53,949 nucleotides of DNA from an uncultured Gammaproteobacteria bacterium. Lineage in GTDB: Bacteria > Patescibacteriota > Patescibacteriia > UBA9934 > GWF2-40-263. Below the pieces are notes generated by a model. That model was given only the letters and a program-made list of their open reading frames with translations, ran no database searches and was not told the origin of the DNA. A program made the translations under genes and the position numbers. The stretch lies in the NCBI GenBank assembly GCA_964355525.1, contig CAYHDY010000001.1, forward strand, positions 1 to 53,949, read 5' to 3'. How positions within the stretch are numbered: the stretch's first letter is position 1; each line of letters opens with the position of its first letter. Of this stretch, positions 3,186-42,370 are shown piece by piece.

Positions 3186-4745
3186 TTACCGTGCGTACTC
3201 AATAACACGTGTCTCTCGAATGATGGTGACTTTGATTTCACCTGGATAGCTGAGTTCAGATTCAATTTTATTCGCGATGTCTTTTGCAAGTTGGTATGAA
3301 GCGAGATCTGTAATTTTTTCTGGATGAATGAAGACACGCACTTCACGTCCGGCTTGAATCGCGTAGACTTTTTCCACGCCTTCAAATCCGCTCGCAGTGC
3401 GTTCCAATTCTTCCATGCGCTGAATAAAGTTTTCAAGGGATTGCTTGCGCGCTCCCGGCCGCGCACCACTGATCGCATCCGCCGCTTTCACAATCGAACC
3501 TTCGACGGTGCGTGGACGATCCTCATGATGGGCGATGGATTGATAACAAATTTCTTCCGGGAATCCGAATTTCTTCATGATGTTGTAGCCGATTTCTGGA
3601 TGTGCACCCTGCATATCGTGATCAACCGCTTTTCCAATGTCATGAAAGAGTCCTCCTTTTTTACAGACAAACACATCCGCACCGAGTTCTTCTGCCATCA
3701 TTCCCGCAAGGGTTCCAACTTCGATGGAGTGTTGCAAAGCGTTTTGTCCGTAACTGGTACGGAACTTCATGCGGCCTAAAATCGAAACGAGCTTCGGATC
3801 GATGGAAGAAACAGGAATTCCGAGTTGATACAACGCATCTTCTCCGGTCTTCTTAAGTTCTTGTGCGAGAGATTTCTTTGCCTCGGTAACAGATTCTTCG
3901 ATGCGGGCCGGATGAATGCGTCCGTCTTTGATGAGCGCATCAAGTGCGCGTTTCGCAACCTGGCGACGAATAGGGGAGAAACCGCTGATGGTAATAATCG
4001 ACGGTGTGTCATCCACAATGATTTCTGTTCCCGTCAAAAGTTCAATGGCTTTAATGTTACGTCCTTCTTTTCCGATGATGCGTCCTTTCATTTCATCGTT
4101 TGGAAGTTCAACAGCGGTTGTGGTTGTGTCGACGGACACGGACGAAGAGAATCGCGTGATCGCAAGGGAAAGTAATTTGCGTGATTTGATTTCCACTTCT
4201 TCTTCGGTGATCTCATCCATCTTACGCATGCGACTCATGAGCGCTTCTGAAGAATCCACTTCGATTTGTTTCATCAACTTTTCTTCCGCCTGTTCTTTTG
4301 TTAATTGAGCGACGGCTTGCAGTTTCAATTGTTGTTCGTGCTTCAATGTCTCGATGTTCGTTTTAACATCTTCGACTTGTTTCAATTGTTCTTCGAGACG
4401 TGTTTTCTTATCTTCAATCTCGATCAGTTTTTGATCGAACATCGTTTCACGTTTCTCTAATCGTTTCTGTTGTTCTTGGATGTCACGACGTTGAACTTGT
4501 TCTTCCTGCTTTGCGTCTTCAATGACTTTGAACGCTTTTTCTTTTGCCTCGATTAACAATTCTTGTTGCTTGCTTTTTGCCTCGTTCAGCATCTCTTGTT
4601 GTTTGGTTTTGGTCTCCGTCAGAATTTTTTCCGCCTTGTTCTCTGCGTCATCGGCCATGCGGGAGGCTTGTGCTTTTCTGTACACATACCCACCAACCGC
4701 ACCACCTCCGAGCCCGAGAACGAGCAGAAGGATCGAAATAAACAT
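3186..4745 (-). CDS. rny: Ribonuclease Y
   Basis: N-terminal TM helix, long coiled coil, KH region (GRIIGKEGRNIKAIE) and HD domain (LFHDIGKAVDH, HHEDRP). Size 519 aa. Confidence 0.9.
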   Translation of the reverse strand: MFISILLLVLGLGGGAVGGYVYRKAQASRMADDAENKAEKILTETKTKQQEMLNEAKSKQQELLIEAKEKAFKVIEDAKQEEQVQRRDIQEQQKRLEKRETMFDQKLIEIEDKKTRLEEQLKQVEDVKTNIETLKHEQQLKLQAVAQLTKEQAEEKLMKQIEVDSSEALMSRMRKMDEITEEEVEIKSRKLLSLAITRFSSSVSVDTTTTAVELPNDEMKGRIIGKEGRNIKAIELLTGTEIIVDDTPSIITISGFSPIRRQVAKRALDALIKDGRIHPARIEESVTEAKKSLAQELKKTGEDALYQLGIPVSSIDPKLVSILGRMKFRTSYGQNALQHSIEVGTLAGMMAEELGADVFVCKKGGLFHDIGKAVDHDMQGAHPEIGYNIMKKFGFPEEICYQSIAHHEDRPRTVEGSIVKAADAISGARPGARKQSLENFIQRMEELERTASGFEGVEKVYAIQAGREVRVFIHPEKITDLASYQLAKDIANKIESELSYPGEIKVTIIRETRVIEYAR

Positions 4746-11258: not shown

Positions 11259-12143
11259 TCAGGCAGCCGCGTCTTTCTTTGGTTGAAGAGCCGCTTCGCC
11301 ACGAGTGAGGAAATCCTTGATGATGCGCAGATCTTGCGGATAGAAGCTGAAGTCGATTGCCTCACCGTTCGTCTGTCCGACAATTGCGCGACATGGAACG
11401 AATTCTTCTTTGAACGCTGTGTTGAACTGTTGCGTTCCGCCGTAGATGGCTCGACGAGAGATCGTGCCAAGACTCGGATCGTTCGAGCGGGGACACTTGT
11501 GTACTTGCTCGATGTAGAACGCTCCGTTCTGTTTTCCTGGATTGACGGTCACACACAGGTTGTAGCCGGTTTCGGTGATGACGATCAGATCCATGTTCCA
11601 GTTCATGTTTTCTTCCACGCTCGGAAGGAACACATAACAATTTGTTGCGGAGAGGAAATTGACGATCGTACGGGCACGCGAGGATGCGTCCGTCACGGAT
11701 TTTTTCCACAGGCGAACGCTTGTTGCGTTTCCATGGCCGAGCGCGAAAATTTCCATCCCGTCCCTTGGATCGAGATCCAAGAAAAAACGGGTGAGGCGAT
11801 GTTGTAGCATTGTGCCGATCACTTCGATCATCCATTGCTCTTTCACGGACGTGTTCGGGTGATAGAGCTGACTTTGCAACTTGTACAGGGCGAGGATGGT
11901 GCAGACTTCGCGTTCGATCGGAGAGATTTGCGCGAAGTAACTTGAAAGCGCTGAACGCACCTGCAGCTCGATCGCGTGCACAGCCATCACGATATCTTTC
12001 GACAGATCGAACAGATATGGATGAAGCTTCGCGACTGGATAGCGTGCGAACTCTTGGATGCGTTTCCGTTCATCTTCCGACAAGCGGATTCGTTTGCTGT
12101 CGACTTGAATTTCCCGATGTTCTTCAAACAATCGATCCCACAT
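11259..12143 (-). CDS. Hypothetical protein (294 aa), orphan
   Basis: Start trimmed to MWDRLFEEH (GGAGG RBS on the minus strand at 12150-12154). It has its own terminator. No motif recognised. Confidence 0.55.
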   Translation of the reverse strand: MWDRLFEEHREIQVDSKRIRLSEDERKRIQEFARYPVAKLHPYLFDLSKDIVMAVHAIELQVRSALSSYFAQISPIEREVCTILALYKLQSQLYHPNTSVKEQWMIEVIGTMLQHRLTRFFLDLDPRDGMEIFALGHGNATSVRLWKKSVTDASSRARTIVNFLSATNCYVFLPSVEENMNWNMDLIVITETGYNLCVTVNPGKQNGAFYIEQVHKCPRSNDPSLGTISRRAIYGGTQQFNTAFKEEFVPCRAIVGQTNGEAIDFSFYPQDLRIIKDFLTRGEAALQPKKDAAA

Positions 12144-12261
12144 GGTGAACCTCCTCTGGTGGTACCAGTGAGAGAATCTATCAGAGATTCTGAGATTCGT
12201 CAAGGTTATCTTCCTCTTTTTCTCGACGAGTTTGCCTATCCTTTGATAGGATACGGTCACT

Positions 12262-15200
12262 ATGAGTTACAATCATCAAGAAATTGAAAAGAAATGGCAG
12301 GCTCGATGGGAAGCCGACCAACACGGGCGTGTCGTCGAAACTGATTCGAACGAAAATGCCTTGTATTACCTCATCATGTTTCCGTATCCGTCCGGATCCG
12401 GTCTGCATGTAGGCCACGTGGAATCGCAAGCCGCGATTGATATTTTGGCACGCATGGAGCGTATGCGCGGAAAAAATGTGTTGTGTCCGATCGGATACGA
12501 TGCGTTTGGTTTGCCTGCGGAGAATTACGCGATTAAGACGGGTGTGCATCCTTCGGTCACAACGAAACAAGCGATTGAGAATTTTCACAAACAGATGCAA
12601 TCCCTCGGCCTCTCGTTCGATTGGTCACGCGAAATTTCTACGGCGGATCCGGAATACTACAAATGGACACAATGGTTGTTTCTCTTGTTTTATAAAAACG
12701 GTTTGGCATACAGAAAAAAATCTCCCGTGAACTGGTGTGACGGTTGTCATACCGTTCTCGCAAACGAACAAGTCGTCGCCGGCGCCTGCGAACGTTGCGG
12801 CACCATTGTGATCCAAAAAGATTTGGAACAATGGTTTTTCAATATCACAAAATACGCGGATCGTTTACTCGCAGGTCTCGACACAATCGATTGGCCGGAG
12901 AAGATTAAGTCGATGCAGCGGAATTGGATTGGCAAATCGGTTGGAGCGGAAGTCATCTTTCAACTCGCTGATGCGTCATCCCGAGCGAAGTCCGACGAAG
13001 TCGAGGGATCTTCGATTCGCATGGAAGTTGTATTCGCATCGAACAATAAAGCGAAGAAGGCGCGTATGCAGAAATTGGTTGATGCCGCTGGACTCTCGAT
13101 TCAACTGAAGACGCCCGAGGAAATCGGTATTCTTGATTTCGATGTTGTAGAGGATGGTTTGACACTCACGGAGAATTCGGAAAAGAAAGCGCGAGCGCTT
13201 TCGCATCTCACGTCACTGCCGATTCTTGCAGATGATTCCGGATTTTTTATTGAGAACAGTAAATTGGATCCGGTGAAGGTAAAACGAAATGCTCTCGACG
13301 GCGTTGACGAAAAAGAATTTTCAACGGAAGAGATCGGAAACAAGATGCTCACATATTATCAACGCATCGCCACAGATCATGGCGGTCGTGTGGATGCGGA
13401 ATGGCGAAGTTCTTTGTGTTTGATGTCGTCCGCGAAGATATTGAAACAAGAAGAAGCAATCAGACCGACGATTCTGACGAACGAACCGCACGGCATCATG
13501 GATCCGTTTATGCCGCTTCGTCCATTGTATATTTCGAAAGATACAAATAAATACGTTCTCGATCAGACGGATGAAGAAGAATTGATCGAGTTAAAACCGA
13601 TCATGGACGCACTCACACGTTTGTTCCGTCCATCGATTCGTGTTTTTACGACGCGCCCCGACACACTCTTCGGTGCAACGTATCTTGTTCTCGCACCTGA
13701 ACATCAACTTGTTGATTCAATCGTGACCGTTGAACATCGCGCAGAAGTCGAGGTGTATCGCGTCGCTGCGTCGAAGAAATCCGCGCTTGAGCGAACGGAA
13801 TTGCAGAAAGAAAAGACCGGTGTGTTTACGGGTGCGTATGCAATCAATCCTGTGAACGGTGAAGCGATTCCTGTTTGGATCGCAGATTATGTCATCACGA
13901 CATACGGAACCGGAGCGATCATGGCCGTCCCAGCACACGATGAACGAGATTTTGAATTCGCAAAAAAATATCAGTTGCCGACGAAGATTGTTGTCGCATC
14001 AAAAAGTGGGGAAGAGATCGAAGGTTTTTTTGAAGAGGGAGTCGCTGTCCATTCCGAATTTCTTAGTGGACTTTCGACAAGCGGAGCAAAACAAAAAATG
14101 ATTCAGTGGCTCGAGGAGAATCATGTCGGAAATGCGAAGACGACATTTCGTTTGCGCGATTGGCTCGTTTCACGACAACGTTACTGGGGAGCGCCGATTC
14201 CAATTATTTGGTGTGAGGAACATGGGGCACAGGCCGTCGAAGAATCACAACTTCCTGTCGAACTTCCGACCGATGTCGACTTCAAACCGACCGGCGAATC
14301 GCCACTTGTCGATTCAAAAACATTTCACGATGTGAAATGTCCGAAGTGTGGCAAAGATGCGCGTCGCGAGTCTGACACGATGGATACGTTCGTCGACTCG
14401 TCGTGGTACTACTTGCGCTATACAGATCCGCACAACGCGAAGGCGTTCGCGGATAAATCGAAAATCGATTATTGGTGTCCGGTGGATTTGTATCTCGGCG
14501 GCGCGGAACACGCGGTCATGCATTTGTTGTACGCACGCTTTTTCGCATACGCACTTCACGATCTCGGCTATCTGAATTTCTCCGCCAGAGGCGGATCCGC
14601 CTCTGGCGGAGAAGAGCCATTCTTAAAATTGAAAAATCAGGGACTCATCCTCGGACCCGACGGAGACAAGATGTCGAAGTCAAAAGGGAACGTCGTGAAT
14701 CCGGATGAAATCGTTTCCGAGTACGGGGCGGATTCGATTCGTCTCTATGAAATGTTCATGGGGCCGCTTGAAGATGCAAAACCATGGGACACAAAAGGAG
14801 TCGTCGGCGTTCGTCGTTTTCTCGATAAGGTTTGGAAATTGAAAGAAAAAGTCGCCGCCTCTGCGTCATCCCGAGCGCAGCGAAGCGAAGCCGAGGGATC
14901 TTCGAGCGAGGGGGAGATCCTTCGGGTACCTCAGGATGACGCATATGTGAACCGTCTCCTTCACAAAACCATCAAGAAAGTCACGAAGGATCTTGAAGAT
15001 CTGAAATTCAACACGGCGATCTCACAACTCATGATCGCGACGAATGAATTTTCGAGTGTGACATCGATCGAAGAGCAATCACTCGAATCATTGTTGAAAT
15101 TGCTCGCACCGTTCGCGCCGCACATTGCGGAAGAACTCTGGGGACAACTTGGACACACAACATCGATCTTCAAAGAATCATGGCCGACGTTTGATCCGAC

Positions 15201-15402
15201 ACTCATTGTCGACGACGTCATTGAAATGGGTGTGCAAGTGAATGGAAAAGTTCGCGCGACGATTCACATCGCACCGAATGCGGATGAAGCGTCGGCAAAA
15301 GAACTCGCGTTGTCTGAACCGAATGTTTTGAAATGGATTGAAGGAAAAGACATTGTAAAAATTATTTACGTTCCGGGGAAAATTTTTAACATTGTTGTAT
15401 GA
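12262..15402 (+). CDS. leuS: Leucine--tRNA ligase carrying an in-frame Ham1/RdgB-like insertion and three palindromic-element insertions
   Basis: HIGH (GLHVGHVES), Zn module CDGC...CERCG, QRNWIGKS, CP1 editing motifs TTRPDTLFGATY and GTGAIMAVPAHDERD, and KMSKS. At 1046 aa it is much longer than typical bacterial LeuRS. Confidence 0.9.
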   Translation: MSYNHQEIEKKWQARWEADQHGRVVETDSNENALYYLIMFPYPSGSGLHVGHVESQAAIDILARMERMRGKNVLCPIGYDAFGLPAENYAIKTGVHPSVTTKQAIENFHKQMQSLGLSFDWSREISTADPEYYKWTQWLFLLFYKNGLAYRKKSPVNWCDGCHTVLANEQVVAGACERCGTIVIQKDLEQWFFNITKYADRLLAGLDTIDWPEKIKSMQRNWIGKSVGAEVIFQLADASSRAKSDEVEGSSIRMEVVFASNNKAKKARMQKLVDAAGLSIQLKTPEEIGILDFDVVEDGLTLTENSEKKARALSHLTSLPILADDSGFFIENSKLDPVKVKRNALDGVDEKEFSTEEIGNKMLTYYQRIATDHGGRVDAEWRSSLCLMSSAKILKQEEAIRPTILTNEPHGIMDPFMPLRPLYISKDTNKYVLDQTDEEELIELKPIMDALTRLFRPSIRVFTTRPDTLFGATYLVLAPEHQLVDSIVTVEHRAEVEVYRVAASKKSALERTELQKEKTGVFTGAYAINPVNGEAIPVWIADYVITTYGTGAIMAVPAHDERDFEFAKKYQLPTKIVVASKSGEEIEGFFEEGVAVHSEFLSGLSTSGAKQKMIQWLEENHVGNAKTTFRLRDWLVSRQRYWGAPIPIIWCEEHGAQAVEESQLPVELPTDVDFKPTGESPLVDSKTFHDVKCPKCGKDARRESDTMDTFVDSSWYYLRYTDPHNAKAFADKSKIDYWCPVDLYLGGAEHAVMHLLYARFFAYALHDLGYLNFSARGGSASGGEEPFLKLKNQGLILGPDGDKMSKSKGNVVNPDEIVSEYGADSIRLYEMFMGPLEDAKPWDTKGVVGVRRFLDKVWKLKEKVAASASSRAQRSEAEGSSSEGEILRVPQDDAYVNRLLHKTIKKVTKDLEDLKFNTAISQLMIATNEFSSVTSIEEQSLESLLKLLAPFAPHIAEELWGQLGHTTSIFKESWPTFDPTLIVDDVIEMGVQVNGKVRATIHIAPNADEASAKELALSEPNVLKWIEGKDIVKIIYVPGKIFNIVV
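12972..13014. repeat. Palindromic element family A, left-half copy inside leuS (translated as ASSRAKSDEVEGSS)
   Basis: tgcgtcatcccgagcgaag...gagggatcttcg matches the left ends of the copies at 14862 and 28016. Confidence 0.6.
14581..14610. repeat. Palindromic element family B: 30-nt perfect palindrome tccgccagaggcggatccgcctctggcgga inside leuS
   Basis: Perfect self-complementarity. Identical copy at 39646-39675. Exactly 10 codons (SARGGSASGG). Confidence 0.9.
14862..14943. repeat. Palindromic element family A, full copy inside leuS
   Basis: Termini tgcgtcatcccgag / ctcaggatgacgca are inverted repeats (one mismatch). Internal gagggatcttcg / gagatccttcg arms. Translated as SASSRAQRSEAEGSSSEGEILRVPQDDA. 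Confidence 0.8.
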
Positions 15403-24069: not shown

Positions 24070-24381
24070 ATGAACCTGAATACTCGCGATATCACCGATT
24101 TGTTTGAGACGATTCTTTCACTCGTTTCGCTTCCCGAAGCGAAAGCATTTTTTCGGGATTTGCTGACAGAAACAGAGATTCGCGAGTTTAGTCTTCGTTT
24201 TAAAGCGGCACGCATGCTCGAACTCGGCATCCCGTATGTCGAGATTCAAAAACAAACAGGATTAAGTTCAACAACCGTCGCTCGTATTTCTAAATGGCTC
24301 ACTTCCGGTATGAAAGGATATAAAATCATGATCAATCGCAGCGCACATACACACCCTTCAACCAAGAAGGTGCGGTCTTAA
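24070..24381 (+). CDS. TrpR-like YerC/YecD family DNA-binding protein
   Basis: FFRDLLTETEIREFSLRFKAARML and QKQTGLSSTTVARISKWL (HTH motif). Size 103 aa. Confidence 0.75.
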   Translation: MNLNTRDITDLFETILSLVSLPEAKAFFRDLLTETEIREFSLRFKAARMLELGIPYVEIQKQTGLSSTTVARISKWLTSGMKGYKIMINRSAHTHPSTKKVRS

Positions 24382-24402
24382 CGTTTCATTTTTCGAAGCA
24401 AG

Positions 24403-24432
24403 ACACCCTTCTCGGTTGAAGGGTGTTTTTTT
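24403..24432 (+). terminator. Intrinsic terminator
   Basis: acaccctt-ctcggttg-aagggtgt followed by tttttt. Confidence 0.65.
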
Positions 24433-24450
24433 AATTTTAATTCCCTACGC

Positions 24451-24486
24451 TCCCTCCCCATGGACACAGGGGGAGTCGGAGGGGGA
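24451..24486. repeat. Palindromic element family C, intergenic copy
   Basis: tccctcccc-atggacaca-gggggag-tcgg-aggggga. Same architecture as 6921-6956. Confidence 0.65.
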
Positions 24487-24496
24487 CGTGAATCAT

Positions 24497-25183
24497 ATGA
24501 AAAAGAAAATTTTATTTATCGGAGCAACACATGGAGACGAACCGATCGGTGTTCGTACGCTTGAATCGTTGGAGAAAAGACGAACGGACTTTGATTGGAT
24601 TGTGGGAAATGTTCCAGCATTTGAGCGTGGAACGCGCTGTTTCGAAGGCGACTTAAATCGCAGTGCACCCGGAAACATCGAAGCGACAACCTATACATCT
24701 CGTCGCGCTGCGGAAATTCTCGTGCAGTCGAAACGATACGATGTCACCATCGATTTGCACGGCGCGATTCAGAACACGGGAATCTTTTTAATCGTTACGA
24801 ATCCAAAAAAAGAAAATGTGGCGCTTGCAAAAACATTGGACGTGCGTCGTGTCGTCGTGTGGCCGAGTTTTTCTCCGGAGCTTTCGGGGCCAATGAGTGA
24901 ATTCTTTCCGTGCGGATTCGAGATCGAATGCGGACCGAAGAATGATCCGAATGTGCAAGCGGAACTCGAGTGTGTCCTTGCGAATTTTCTCGATGGAGTT
25001 TCGTTGAGTGAACCGCAAGAGTGGTTCGAAGTGTATGGTGCACTTCGTGAATCGACGGATATCACATTGAAAGAATTCGAAGAAGCAATCGTGAACGGGG
25101 AAACATTTTTTCCGTTGCTTGTCGGAACGTATACGGAAATGAATGGAGTGGTCTGTTACAAAATGCGTTGCACTTCGAAATAA
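24497..25183 (+). CDS. AstE/AspA (succinylglutamate desuccinylase/aspartoacylase)-like zinc carboxypeptidase-fold protein
   Basis: ILFIGATHGDEPIG (H-x-x-E zinc motif), DLNR and DLHG. Start trimmed to MKKKILF, past the repeat element. Confidence 0.6.
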   Translation: MKKKILFIGATHGDEPIGVRTLESLEKRRTDFDWIVGNVPAFERGTRCFEGDLNRSAPGNIEATTYTSRRAAEILVQSKRYDVTIDLHGAIQNTGIFLIVTNPKKENVALAKTLDVRRVVVWPSFSPELSGPMSEFFPCGFEIECGPKNDPNVQAELECVLANFLDGVSLSEPQEWFEVYGALRESTDITLKEFEEAIVNGETFFPLLVGTYTEMNGVVCYKMRCTSK

Positions 25184-28015: not shown

Positions 28016-28121
28016 TGCGTCATCCTGAACGAAGGTTGGTGATCTGTCACAACCGAAGCTGAAGGATCTCTGTGCGAATTCGATTCGCCCGAAGATCCTT
28101 CGGCAAGCTCAGGATGACGCA
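28016..28121. repeat. Palindromic element family A, full-length intergenic copy (106 nt)
   Basis: Termini tgcgtcatcctgaacgaagg / ...caagctcaggatgacgca. Internal gaaggatct / agatccttc arms. Confidence 0.8.
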
Positions 28122-28132
28122 TGTAAAAAATT

Positions 28133-28816
28133 ATGTTCCTAACGTTATTATTTTCCTCCCTCCCTCTCGCTCTCGCCTGGATCATCGCGATTCTCTTTTC
28201 GCTTTCCGCACATGAATTTTCGCACGGGCTCATTGCAAAATTTCGCGGCGATCCGACCGCTGAGCGCGAAGGACGATTGACACTTAATCCGCTCGCGCAC
28301 TTGGATCTGTTCGGATTCATTCCGCTTTTGCTTTTCGGATTCGGTTGGGCGAAACCGGTTCCATTTAATCCGTATAATCTAAAAAATCCGAAATGGGATT
28401 CTGTTTTGATCGCGCTTGCAGGACCATTTGCAAACTTGATCATCGCAACCATTTCGGCAATCGCGTTTCGATTTCTTGTTGTGAACGGATCTCTCCCTGC
28501 AGATAATTTGCTCACGGCATTTTTATTTTTTCTCATCCTCCTCAATTTATTTCTCATGCTTTTCAACGTCATCCCGATCGCTCCGCTTGATGGATCAAAA
28601 TTATTCTTTGCGCTCTTCGATGCACCGAAGTATGAAGATCTTCGCCGTTTCGTTGCCATTCGTGGTCCGCAAATTCTGATGTTCGCGGTCCTAATTTCTC
28701 TTTTTACAAACTTTGACATCTTCTTCTTTATCAGTCGACCGGCTTATGCGGTGTGTCACGCACTGTCCGGAACAAGTTGTGAAGCCTATCAAAGTTTGTT
28801 GTTCTCTTCATTGTAA
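28133..28816 (+). CDS. Site-2 protease (peptidase M50) family protein
   Basis: HEFSHGL zinc motif, LNPLAHLD and NLIPIAPLDGSK-like NVIPIAPLDGSK. Multi-pass membrane protein. Confidence 0.85.
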   Translation: MFLTLLFSSLPLALAWIIAILFSLSAHEFSHGLIAKFRGDPTAEREGRLTLNPLAHLDLFGFIPLLLFGFGWAKPVPFNPYNLKNPKWDSVLIALAGPFANLIIATISAIAFRFLVVNGSLPADNLLTAFLFFLILLNLFLMLFNVIPIAPLDGSKLFFALFDAPKYEDLRRFVAIRGPQILMFAVLISLFTNFDIFFFISRPAYAVCHALSGTSCEAYQSLLFSSL

Positions 28817-29423: not shown

Positions 29424-29454
29424 GAGGAGATTCTTCGCTGCGTTCAGAATGACA
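29424..29454. repeat. Family A-related right-half fragment (gagattcttcgctgcgttcagaatgaca)
   Basis: Aligns to gagatccttcgggtacctcaggatgacgca of the 14862 copy, with several substitutions. Confidence 0.4.
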
Positions 29455-39033: not shown

Positions 39034-40086
39034 ATGAAAAAAGATTTGATTCCAAAAAAAGTTTTAGCAGCATTTGGTTTATCTTCACCACGATCTGTAA
39101 TCATGATTGCATCCGGTTTGATTCACCAAACGTATTGTGTTGATTCGGGCAAAGATAAGTATATCATCCAGCGATTACATCCCGTCCTTGCAAGCGAGGA
39201 AATCGCGGAGGATTTTCTTGCGGTGACAAAATTTTTACACGAACAAAAATTTTTAGCGCCACAGTGCGTTCTGTCAAAAAATGGGAGCGTGTTGGTGCAT
39301 ATTAATGATTTTTCTTGGCGTGCGCAAACATTTATCGCGGGGAAAACGGTTCATCGATTGAAAAATGTGGCGATGGCAAAAGAAGCAGGAATGATTTATG
39401 CGCAATTTCATAAAACGCTTGCAGTGATTCCATATCAATTCAAATCAAAAAAAGTTTTGCACGATACGGAAAAAATTTTTGACACATTTCGAAAAACAGT
39501 TGATTCATACCGTGATTCTGAATTAATGACGGAGGTTCATTCGGAAGTTGAATTTCTTTTAAAACAGACGCCAAAGTATTTTTTACCAAAGTCACTGCCT
39601 CTCCGTGTGATTCACGGTGATCCGAAAATATCGAACATTCTTTTTTCCGCCAGAGGCGGATCCGCCTCTGGCGGAGATCGAAATGGAAAAGCGAAAGCGA
39701 TTGTTGATCTCGATACATGCAATCGACGTCCACTTCTTGTTGAACTCGGCGATGCATTTCGGTCGTGGTGTGGAGGTGTTGAGGACGATTCAAAAAATAC
39801 ATTTTCGATTCCATTATTTCGTGCTGCATGGAAAGGGTATGAATCGATTGCGAAATCATTGATAACAAAAAAAGAAAAACAACAGGTTCCGAAAAGTATC
39901 GGAACGATTACGCTTGAACTCGCATGTCGATTTATGACAGATTATTTTGCGGATACATATTTCGGTTGGGATTCAACAAGATATTCATCGCGTCGTTTGC
40001 AGAATCTTGCGCGTGTACGAGGACAGATTGCGGAGTTCAAAGATTATCAAAAAAAACAGAAGGAGATCCAAAAGATTGTTTCTTGA
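39034..40086 (+). CDS. Phosphotransferase (APH/choline-kinase family) protein carrying the family B palindrome
   Basis: Catalytic loop VIHGDPKISNILF and metal loop AIVDLDT. Confidence 0.65.
   Translation: MKKDLIPKKVLAAFGLSSPRSVIMIASGLIHQTYCVDSGKDKYIIQRLHPVLASEEIAEDFLAVTKFLHEQKFLAPQCVLSKNGSVLVHINDFSWRAQTFIAGKTVHRLKNVAMAKEAGMIYAQFHKTLAVIPYQFKSKKVLHDTEKIFDTFRKTVDSYRDSELMTEVHSEVEFLLKQTPKYFLPKSLPLRVIHGDPKISNILFSARGGSASGGDRNGKAKAIVDLDTCNRRPLLVELGDAFRSWCGGVEDDSKNTFSIPLFRAAWKGYESIAKSLITKKEKQQVPKSIGTITLELACRFMTDYFADTYFGWDSTRYSSRRLQNLARVRGQIAEFKDYQKKQKEIQKIVS
39646..39675. repeat. Palindromic element family B: identical 30-nt perfect palindrome inside the kinase gene
   Basis: tccgccagaggcggatccgcctctggcgga, 30/30 identical to 14581-14610. 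Same reading frame (SARGGSASGG). Confidence 0.9.
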
Positions 40087-42314: not shown

Positions 42315-42370
42315 TGTGGGACGGATCGCAGACGATAGAAAATCTTCTCTCGTGTGTGATCCGTCCCACA
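42315..42370 (+). ncRNA. Strong stem-loop (13-bp perfect stem tgtgggacggatc / gatccgtcccaca, 30-nt loop) in the rpsJ-rplC spacer
   Basis: Perfect inverted repeat seen directly in the sequence. No T-run follows it, so it is not a classical terminator. Confidence 0.4.

Follow-up and report, generated by a model that had tools for sequence, protein, structure and literature searches.

A palindromic repeat in frame within a Patescibacteria leucyl-tRNA synthetase gene is probably a gene-less relative of hairpin units with Ssn-like GIY-YIG nuclease genes

What is an 82-nucleotide (nt) nested palindrome doing inside an essential gene of a bacterium from the candidate phyla radiation (CPR, or Patescibacteria), and where did it come from? 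The question is raised by contig CAYHDY010000001.1, whose entire 53,949 nt are hereafter called the window (GC 46.6%, about 92% coding), and by its leuS gene for leucyl-tRNA synthetase (LeuRS), whose reading frame continues straight through an element that we call A1. We consider it probable that A1 is a gene-less miniature of a hairpin unit whose full form holds a GIY-YIG (Ssn-like) nuclease gene, and that it landed in the LeuRS linker and is tolerated there. The features on which the argument turns are the following.

12262 to 15402, plus strand: leuS, encoding LeuRS of 1046 amino acids (aa); holds A1, A3, a family B palindrome and a Ham1 domain insertion.
14862 to 14943, plus strand: A1, in frame in leuS, where ASSRAQRSEAEGSSSEGEILRVPQDDA makes up aa 868-894; backed by repeat, fold and arm-profile evidence.
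28016 to 28121, no strand assigned: A2, a full 106-nt intergenic copy whose left end is the CCTGA variant.
12972 to 13015, plus strand: A3, a left-arm singleton, in frame in leuS, encoding ASSRAKSDEVEGSS (aa 238-251).

An in-frame hairpin in the LeuRS linker

The first-pass annotation had drawn A1 as an 82-nt element with terminal inverted repeats and internal arms, and measurement gives the same picture. The sequence, tgcgtcatcccgag...ctcaggatgacgca, also read as TGCGTCATCCCGAG...CTCAGGATGACGCA, has outer arms of 14 nt each (14862-14875 and 14930-14943; 93% complementary, one mismatch) and inner arms of 11 nt each (14891-14901 and 14915-14925; 91% complementary). Folding, a check suggested at the outset, yields stable predicted hairpins: A1 as RNA forms one long branched hairpin of -45 kcal/mol (z -5.5; 0 of 200 shuffles as stable) and as single-stranded DNA (ssDNA) reaches -23.1 kcal/mol (z -4.0), while A2 reaches -57 kcal/mol as RNA (z -8.2) and -33.1 kcal/mol as ssDNA (z -7.4). 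The A3 arm alone gives no significant fold.

The 14-mer of the A1 terminus, with up to two mismatches allowed, occurs five times in the window against 0.49 expected, a count attained in 0 of 100 shuffles. An arm profile built on publicly available copies detects A1 (both arms), A2 (both) and A3 (left only) and nothing else in the window. The intergenic copy and the half copy within leuS that had been annotated are each recovered by both scans. A2 begins 4 nt past the murA stop codon (28011), upstream of an open reading frame (ORF, 28133-28816) with an HExxH motif that is M50 peptidase-like by eye alone, and 26 of 29 positions are identical between it and the right arm of A1. Rfam returned nothing at the gathering threshold in the window and 10 related loci, and on A2, with E values up to 10 admitted, only weak chance-level matches belonging to no family; a literature search by sequence string retrieved unrelated primers only.

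As the annotation had stated, the leuS frame runs through A1 without interruption. The in-frame product is S-ASSRAQRSEAEGSSSEGEILRVPQDDA (aa 867-894), flanked by RFLDKVWKL and LHKTIKKVT; AQRSEAEGSSSEGEILR is an example of the predicted peptide from the region 14800-15000. In an AlphaFold model of LeuRS built on a 25-sequence alignment (mean pLDDT 70), the segments with pLDDT below 50 include three repeat-derived peptides, at residues 238-252 (A3), 775-786 (family B) and 867-891 (A1), the last placed between helices 848-863 and 891-912. Sequences of solved LeuRS structures align across the A1 region, and the length of the linker varies among them. On the predicted structure, A1 is a tolerated in-frame insertion at a permissive loop that adds a disordered stretch of 27 residues, and most likely it is translated as a hydrophilic, disordered loop of 27-28 residues without a required function. 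A phmmer search with a 33-aa inserted peptide gave 0 matches among 1.84 billion representatives, and a 41-aa inserted-peptide query, which shared no words with any target and missed even its own cluster, proved insensitive.

A 5,351-bp ENA contig from a separate assembly encodes the same LeuRS including A1 (P0001). Its sole protein difference, R871Q (window 14872-14874; CGA to CAA implied), falls in the left terminal repeat of A1. The closest database relatives of this LeuRS carry the names Candidatus Uhrbacteria, Parcubacteria or Patescibacteria, and 25 LeuRS sequences were aligned and placed on a neighbour-joining tree from 734 ungapped columns. The segment from RFLDKV to LHK measures 18-19 residues in P0002, P0003, P0007, P0010, P0013 and P0020/P0022 (about 72% identity), and the sequence comparison indicates that this empty linker is the ancestral state. 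The sisters of the window LeuRS on the tree, P0003 and P0007 (Candidatus Uhrbacteria-like CPR), are empty, and presence/absence variation of the kind that the annotation had proposed to look for therefore exists. Relative to empty alleles A1 adds 84 nt and keeps the frame.

The distribution is patchy. P0004 has an element and P0013, 92% identical to it, does not, nor does P0010; P0015, on a deeper branch, again has an element of the P0004 type. At the DNA level the P0004 copy (locus L121) reads TGCGTCATCCCGAG...GAGGGATCTCA...GAGATTCCTCC...TCGGAATGACAC, and that of P0015 (L122) is a close variant. P0006 (L123) carries a full TGTC-headed element at the junction of the CP1 domain (segment fold -69 kcal/mol) and, in the linker, a small GGGGTC...GACCCC hairpin. 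The CP1 junction of P0118 (L244) likewise holds a copy of the family, read in the other frame as CHPEGAQRLKDLSSDPSPAAQDDK.

Only 25 of 61 parsable relatives keep the 19-residue linker. Elsewhere the linker contains VIASEAKQS...PRNDK, RHPELVEGS, CHSEPAEES and similar peptides, of the kind that hairpin repeats give when translated, and the CP1 junction shows the same pattern. By these peptides, several repeat families have entered both sites of LeuRS time and again. The load of insertions in leuS had been called unusual for an essential gene; this stands for bacteria in general, whereas among CPR LeuRS such a load is typical.

How such a repeat can stay open is seen from its frame. A1, A3 and the copies of P0004, P0015 and P0006, the five genic copies whose DNA was read, all run GCG/NTG TCA TC[C/T] CGA and give (A)SSR; P0018, judged by its SSR peptide, would be a sixth in the same frame. 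The commoner CCTGA variant would place a TGA stop in this frame, and all five carry C. The C/T position that separates CGA from TGA is the sole mismatch of the A1 terminal repeat. The T variant is found in A2 and in 84% of 240 element ends from other genomes, and where a copy with CCTGA lies in a gene, the frame in use is shifted by one base and gives (C/R/S)HPE, for example CHPE or RHPE. The expectation that genic copies lie in stop-free frames thus agrees with every genic copy examined, although relatives were sought by their full-length ORFs and the preservation of frame is partly an effect of ascertainment. Of 120 copies from GTDB, 13 fall within long open stretches, a test that is uninformative in high-GC genomes.

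Probable kinship with CGTC-headed repeats and Ssn-like nuclease genes

Both ends of A1 start G-CGTC-AT, which points to the superfamily of CGTC-tagged repetitive extragenic palindromic (REP) sequences described by Di Nocera, De Gregorio and Rocco (2013, BMC Genomics 14:522; PMC3733652). In published members the CGTC head is followed by a stem of 8-9 bp that opens with AT and closes on a loop of 4-5 nt, and by a short unpaired tail, mostly CCA; they are mostly head-to-head dimers, come from five phyla, mainly from Alphaproteobacteria, and usually lie just downstream of ORFs. The superfamily includes Rickettsia conorii RPE-4 and RPE-6 and Neisseria dRS3, had yielded no dedicated transposase, and contains intragenic dimers that encode 20-30 aa, including those in the IleRS and GlyRS-beta of Erythrobacter litoralis (PMC3733652).

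The window copies share much of this design. A1, A2 and A3 start T-G-CGTC, with the right ends of A1 and A2 as the reverse complement, and the copies of relatives are headed CGTC or TGTC, where the superfamily has CGTC, or TGTC/CCTC. AT follows the head in all copies (CGTC-AT-CCCGAG, CGTC-AT-CCTGA). A1 and A2 are head-out inverted dimers, A3 is a singleton, A2 lies just past a stop codon, and an association with Y1 or DDE transposases is absent in both systems. On the other hand, the A1 arms have a 5-bp local stem (ATCCC/GGGAT) with a 17-22-nt loop and no CCA tail, GGGAT or AGGAT being followed by CTTCG or CTCC, and the records found here come from about 12 phyla against the five published. 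An arm of locus L245 is canonical (8-bp stem, 4-nt loop, z -3.0). From these sequence features, the A1 family appears to be related to the CGTC-tagged REP and Ssn-related superfamily, including Neisseria dRS3/NTS and Rickettsia RPE-4/RPE-6, and is not the private 'family A' as which it had first been annotated.

Further copies, which the annotation had called for, are plentiful. A two-end pattern (GCGTCATCCYGA, 52-82 nt, TCRGGATGACGC) run on GTDB species genomes yields at least 117 loci, and the family numbers at least 237 public loci in genomes and metagenomes together. Record titles among the matches listed include Acidobacteriota, Gemmatimonadota, several alphaproteobacterial orders, a gammaproteobacterial metagenome-assembled genome, Bacteroidota, Clostridia, Verrucomicrobiota, Pirellulales, Hydrogenedentota, Abditibacteriota, Gastranaerophilales, Doudnabacteria and Saccharibacteria; the subfamily spans records from about 12 phyla, with CPR, Bacillota and Planctomycetota among them. 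Beyond the bases that the pattern requires, many copies have GAGCG-AGCGAAGGATC plus its complement, and those of Sphingomonas and Rhodospirillales read CGTC-ATCCTGAA-CTCG-TTCAGGAT-CCA. A metagenome scan tuned to the CCCGAG...GAGGGATCT arm gave at least 120 loci (L124-L243). A very abundant soil subfamily of high GC, its spacer fixed at 23 nt (GCGTCATCCCGAGCG.AGCCG.T.TTCAGGCGGAGCGAGGGATCTC), dominates among them; five of the 120 have a GC content below 52%, which says little on copy number in CPR. The right end follows within about 130 nt in 34 of 82 of the soil hits with the 23-nt spacer, and the other 48 look like singletons. As a check on concerted evolution, arm identity is 0.68 within copies against 0.54 between copies, a modest excess only. 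Viral contigs gave 0 matches to the family pattern, and carriage by phages is hence unsupported.

The Neisseria branch of this superfamily is tied to an enzyme. The Neisseria NTS (CGTCATTCCCGCG...GCGGGAATC, beginning CGTCATTCCC) contains dRS3, and SsnA, a 94-aa single-domain GIY-YIG protein, binds and cuts it only as ssDNA (PMC11893778). The ssnA gene occurs across many bacteria in an IS-like NTS-ssnA-NTS layout, whose mobility was left hypothetical (Nat Commun 2025;16:2388; PMC11893778). In Neisseria, NTS modulate natural transformation, 2% of them are genic, and dRS3/NTS have been proposed as recombination substrates (PMC11893778).

A GIY-YIG consensus, which served as a lead and not as evidence, was compared by tblastn with 245 sequences (1.65 Mb), most of them element-centred loci fetched for the repeat and not for the gene. 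Five of the six hits are flanked by family arms within about 130 nt, and the arms are inverted wherever both sides are seen. The Pfam cut-off for PF01541 was reached by four of five translated hits, the truncated L139 scoring 18.9 against 22.6 bits; the sixth hit, L184, has an internal stop, and its unit may be decaying. Together with units fetched by protein, the architecture of arm, gene and arm is found in nine related loci (eight independent), three of them from named CPR genomes, around a single-domain gene of about 95 aa.

L184, 2543-3032: GIY-YIG unit, fetched by repeat.
L139, 1909-2387: GIY-YIG unit, fetched by repeat.
L212, 6345-6954: GIY-YIG unit, fetched by repeat.
L227, 1364-1788: GIY-YIG unit, fetched by repeat.
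L010, 3639-4109: GIY-YIG unit, fetched by repeat.
L245, about 3948-4375, and L246/L247: GIY-YIG units, fetched by protein.
L248, 1727-2098: GIY-YIG unit, fetched by protein.

L245 and L246/L247 (33% GC), directly downstream of thrS, read TGTCATCCTCGCGAATGCGGGGATCTCC, gene, then GAGATCCCCG...CGAGGATGACA, with TGTC-headed arms. L248 (45% GC) reads TGTCATCCCGAGCGGAGTCGAGGGATCTCA, gene, then TGAGATTTCTCC...GGTCGAAACGACA. With the gene taken out, the arms of L248 match the element of P0004 at 83% identity, that of P0015 at 88% and A1 at 88% (67 columns). Given a gene flanked by the repeats and arms of 83-88% identity, the LeuRS insertions are best read as gene-less miniatures of the arm-GIY-YIG-arm unit. 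Homologues of the L227 protein, found by protein similarity alone, are all single-domain and about 95-140 aa long, and include proteins named as Parcubacteria group bacterium and Candidatus Moranbacteria. A PDB search with the L227 protein gave one weak match, UPF0213 protein BH0048 (E 0.005), and no NCBIfam model matches these proteins. The GIY-YIG assignment made here is by Pfam PF01541, whereas the Ssn family is cd10448. The likeness to the Ssn/NTS system lies in CGTCAT-headed hairpin repeats on both sides of a GIY-YIG gene of about 95 aa at these nine loci, and in repeats that greatly outnumber the genes. One difference is that gene-less dimers as in-frame protein insertions are not described in PMC11893778.

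Rickettsia palindromic elements (RPEs) offer the nearest parallel for the outcome. Their first report was reportedly that of Ogata et al. 2000 (Science 290:347). According to later summaries (PMC10969869; PMC3733652), they are palindromic repeats in frame in unrelated and often essential Rickettsia genes, where they are compatible with the fold and function of the protein. As first reported they are about 150 nt long (PMC10969869), and RPE-bearing proteins are reported to be expressed (PMC3733652). Like them, A1 is an in-frame, stop-free palindrome at a permissive site of an essential gene in a host with a reduced genome, and is absent from sister alleles; RPE-4 and RPE-6 have the same CGTC head (PMC3733652). 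Unlike them, it sits in a CPR host and not in Rickettsia, and the element measures 82-106 nt rather than about 150 nt.

REPINs, non-autonomous inverted repeat pairs mobilized by RAYT transposases (Bertels and Rainey 2011; PMC3116915), resemble the present family in that two inverted units form a long hairpin and that a single-copy gene with the repeats on either side is presumed to drive them. They differ in their head (GTAG, not CGTC), in their enzyme (a Y1 HUH transposase, not a GIY-YIG nuclease) and in being described as vertically inherited, against the cross-phylum distribution here; a scan of window ORFs found none of the Y1_Tnp family. Nor do the features of a classical miniature inverted-repeat transposable element apply: the gene-bearing parents encode a GIY-YIG nuclease and not a transposase, and no target-site duplication is seen at A1 (flanks CTC|...|TAT), at A2 (AAT|...|TGT) or at the copies of relatives.

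Other palindromes and a domain insertion in the window

Besides A1, A2 and A3, three palindromic features of the window bear on the family or on leuS.

2125 to 2179, no strand assigned: 55-nt palindrome with a TGTC head (TGTCATCTCGTTC / GAGCGAGATGACA), a possible relative found by palindrome scan.
14578 to 14613: perfect palindrome of family B in leuS, encoding SARGGSASGG.
29424 to 29454, no strand assigned: proposed degenerate half copy, an 18/21 match to the reverse complement of the left arm of A1.

The last of these does not hold up. Its local alignment scores (19-27) lie within the window background, which tops out at 22-26, and the arm profile misses the region. The palindrome at 2125-2179 overlaps the first codons of a minus-strand ORF (1660-2130) and reaches into the spacer before ORF 2252-2842; its head resembles the TGTC-headed CP1-junction copy of L123, and it may be a diverged member of the same superfamily.

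The annotated family B palindrome in leuS proved to be perfect. Its core, CCGCCAGAGGCGGATCCGCCTCTGGCGG, has two exact copies, 14578-14613 and 39646-39675, both genic, in the same frame and giving the peptide SARGGSASGG; the second lies in an APH-family phosphotransferase ORF (39034-40086), right after GDPKISNILF. LeuRS P0012 carries SAIGGSASGG at another site than that of family B in the window.

The domain insertion noted in leuS was identified as a Ham1/ITPase-like domain (PF01725) at the CP1 junction, at about aa 254-455 (window 13021-13626), and A3 sits where the LeuRS body meets it. The closest LeuRS relatives (79-86% identity) are without this domain. Since more distant CPR LeuRS have a Ham1, NUDIX, ASCH or alpha/beta-hydrolase domain in this very place, the CP1 junction of CPR LeuRS may be a hotspot of domain swapping. 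In other lineages whose LeuRS contains Ham1 (P0029, P0056, P0060), the junction between the two is free of repeats.

Two more inverted repeats, at 42315-42370 (26-nt arms, after the EF-Tu gene) and at 24351-24426 (20-nt arms, between ORFs 24070-24381 and 24416-25183), look like terminators unrelated to the A1 family. The window has no tRNA gene and no Rfam family. Directly upstream of leuS, on the opposite strand, is a 333-aa ORF (11259-12260, minus strand) without a Pfam match, and a similar-sized gene without a recorded Pfam match holds the same position in most of the relatives fetched, namely L118, L119/L120, L121, L122 and L123.

Origin of the insertion and its implications

We propose that the full-length unit would comprise a gene for a small single-domain GIY-YIG nuclease between two inverted arms, of which A1 would be a gene-less copy. 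One such copy would have landed in, or recombined into, the surface linker between the catalytic body of LeuRS and its anticodon-binding domain, after the split from the lineage of P0003 and P0007. That the right arm of A1 resembles A2 so closely speaks for an origin inside this genome. Survival would be owed to the kept frame (+84 nt), the stop-free CGA left end and the permissive loop, and the outcome would be, as for RPEs and for intragenic REP dimers in other aminoacyl-tRNA synthetases, a translated loop that is presumably neutral or nearly so. By analogy with SsnA, a cognate nuclease may recognize the single-stranded hairpin, and this recognition would underlie the spread of the repeats, whether nuclease or other activity drives it.

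Several points weigh against this proposal. Neither the 54-kb window nor the leuS-centred loci of relatives (L118-L123, L244) yielded an Ssn-like GIY-YIG gene, and a cognate nuclease in the organism that carries A1 is therefore hypothetical; nor does a Pfam scan find a transposase family in 30 window ORFs or in the leuS-centred loci of relatives. We know of no transposition chemistry for arm-GIY-YIG-arm units, nor are GIY-YIG enzymes, to our knowledge, known for strand transfer. Ssn proteins have been demonstrated to cut ssDNA, not to transpose DNA (PMC11893778). As ssDNA, the individual A1 arms fold at -6.1 and -2.3 kcal/mol (z +0.5 and +0.1) and form no canonical REP hairpin, and a regular-expression search of both strands of the window finds no match to the SRM motif HGTCWYN(0-2)YYVSBRHN(0-5)WNVSBRGN(0-2)RNCYNB. 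A base-exact empty site and a target-site duplication are not definable, the linker DNA being too diverged from the empty allele in L118. L248, the gene-bearing unit closest to A1, is without taxonomic assignment, and since it and L227 carry the C variant too, this variant may be fixed in the subfamily and not selected after insertion.

A different route of arrival, which we regard as rather unlikely, is that a linker already holding the element came by homologous recombination or allele exchange between related CPR leuS genes, with the repeats as possible substrates, a role proposed for dRS3/NTS (PMC11893778). The elements of the window and of P0004 stop just before a conserved V-x-R-(T/L)-LHK and thus share a right flank, that of P0015 having the same linker and another right flank; the three LeuRS are not sisters, and the Ham1 domain missing from the closest relatives speaks of mosaic ancestry. 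However, the right arm of A1 matches A2 and not the right arms of P0004 or P0015, and the left flanks are unequal, at 10, 2 and 3 residues after FLDKV. Arrival by recombination may also coexist with transposition.

We find it unlikely that the hairpin is kept for a function as nucleic acid, be it as an Ssn cleavage site that modulates uptake or recombination of leuS DNA, as an mRNA structure that makes ribosomes pause between LeuRS domains, or as an RNase target that adjusts the expression of leuS. The hairpin is nearly perfect although it lies in coding DNA, the same two LeuRS sites have been struck repeatedly across lineages, and NTS have the effect on Neisseria transformation noted above. 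Yet the nearest relatives without the element show no compensation, unrelated hairpin families (the GGVPRP and VIASEAKQS types) occupy the same site, which a permissive site explains better, and NTS are rarely genic in Neisseria (PMC11893778).

Two further alternatives fare worse. Insertions are found in the rRNA genes of CPR bacteria, and with an RNA hairpin as stable as that of A1 one might suppose that the element is untranslated: it could be cut out of the mRNA, skipped by ribosomes or taken out of the finished protein. We give this very little credence: the genic copies examined are all in frame and stop-free (in part through ascertainment), with CCTGA copies using another frame, Rfam has no intron or ribozyme match, 27 residues is far below the size of an intein, and RPE-bearing Rickettsia proteins are reported to be expressed (PMC3733652). 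Intein and intron readings of A1 are ruled out by this length and the lack of an Rfam match. Template switching can create palindromes, and palindromes can mislead assemblers, but a chance palindrome, a locally generated quasi-palindrome or an assembly artefact is effectively refuted by the shuffles, none of which reaches the observed copy number, by the same arms at other loci and in other phyla, and by the independent contig with the same insertion and one substitution.

A broader extension of the proposal is itself improbable as matters stand: CGTC-headed, Ssn-driven units may be actively mobile in CPR and may enter the CP1 junction and linker of LeuRS again and again, as landing pads or recombination joints by which the enzyme acquired its Ham1, NUDIX, ASCH and alpha/beta-hydrolase domains. 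A3, just ahead of the Ham1 domain, would then be what one such capture left behind.

Rickettsia has provided examples of palindromic repeats in frame in essential genes since 2000, and the phenomenon is here extended to CPR/Patescibacteria, where a coding density of about 92% means that most insertions must hit genes. The repeats headed CGTC were without a dedicated enzyme in 2013 (PMC3733652) and were tied to Ssn in 2025 (PMC11893778). A widespread subfamily, present in Acidobacteriota, Gemmatimonadota, Bacteroidota, Bacillota, Planctomycetota, CPR and others, escapes both the SRM motif and the four CGTC families as published. Two permissive loops of LeuRS are recurrent sinks for several repeat families, and the relation of miniature to parent, at 83-88% identity, argues indirectly for present or past mobility of arm-ssn-arm units.

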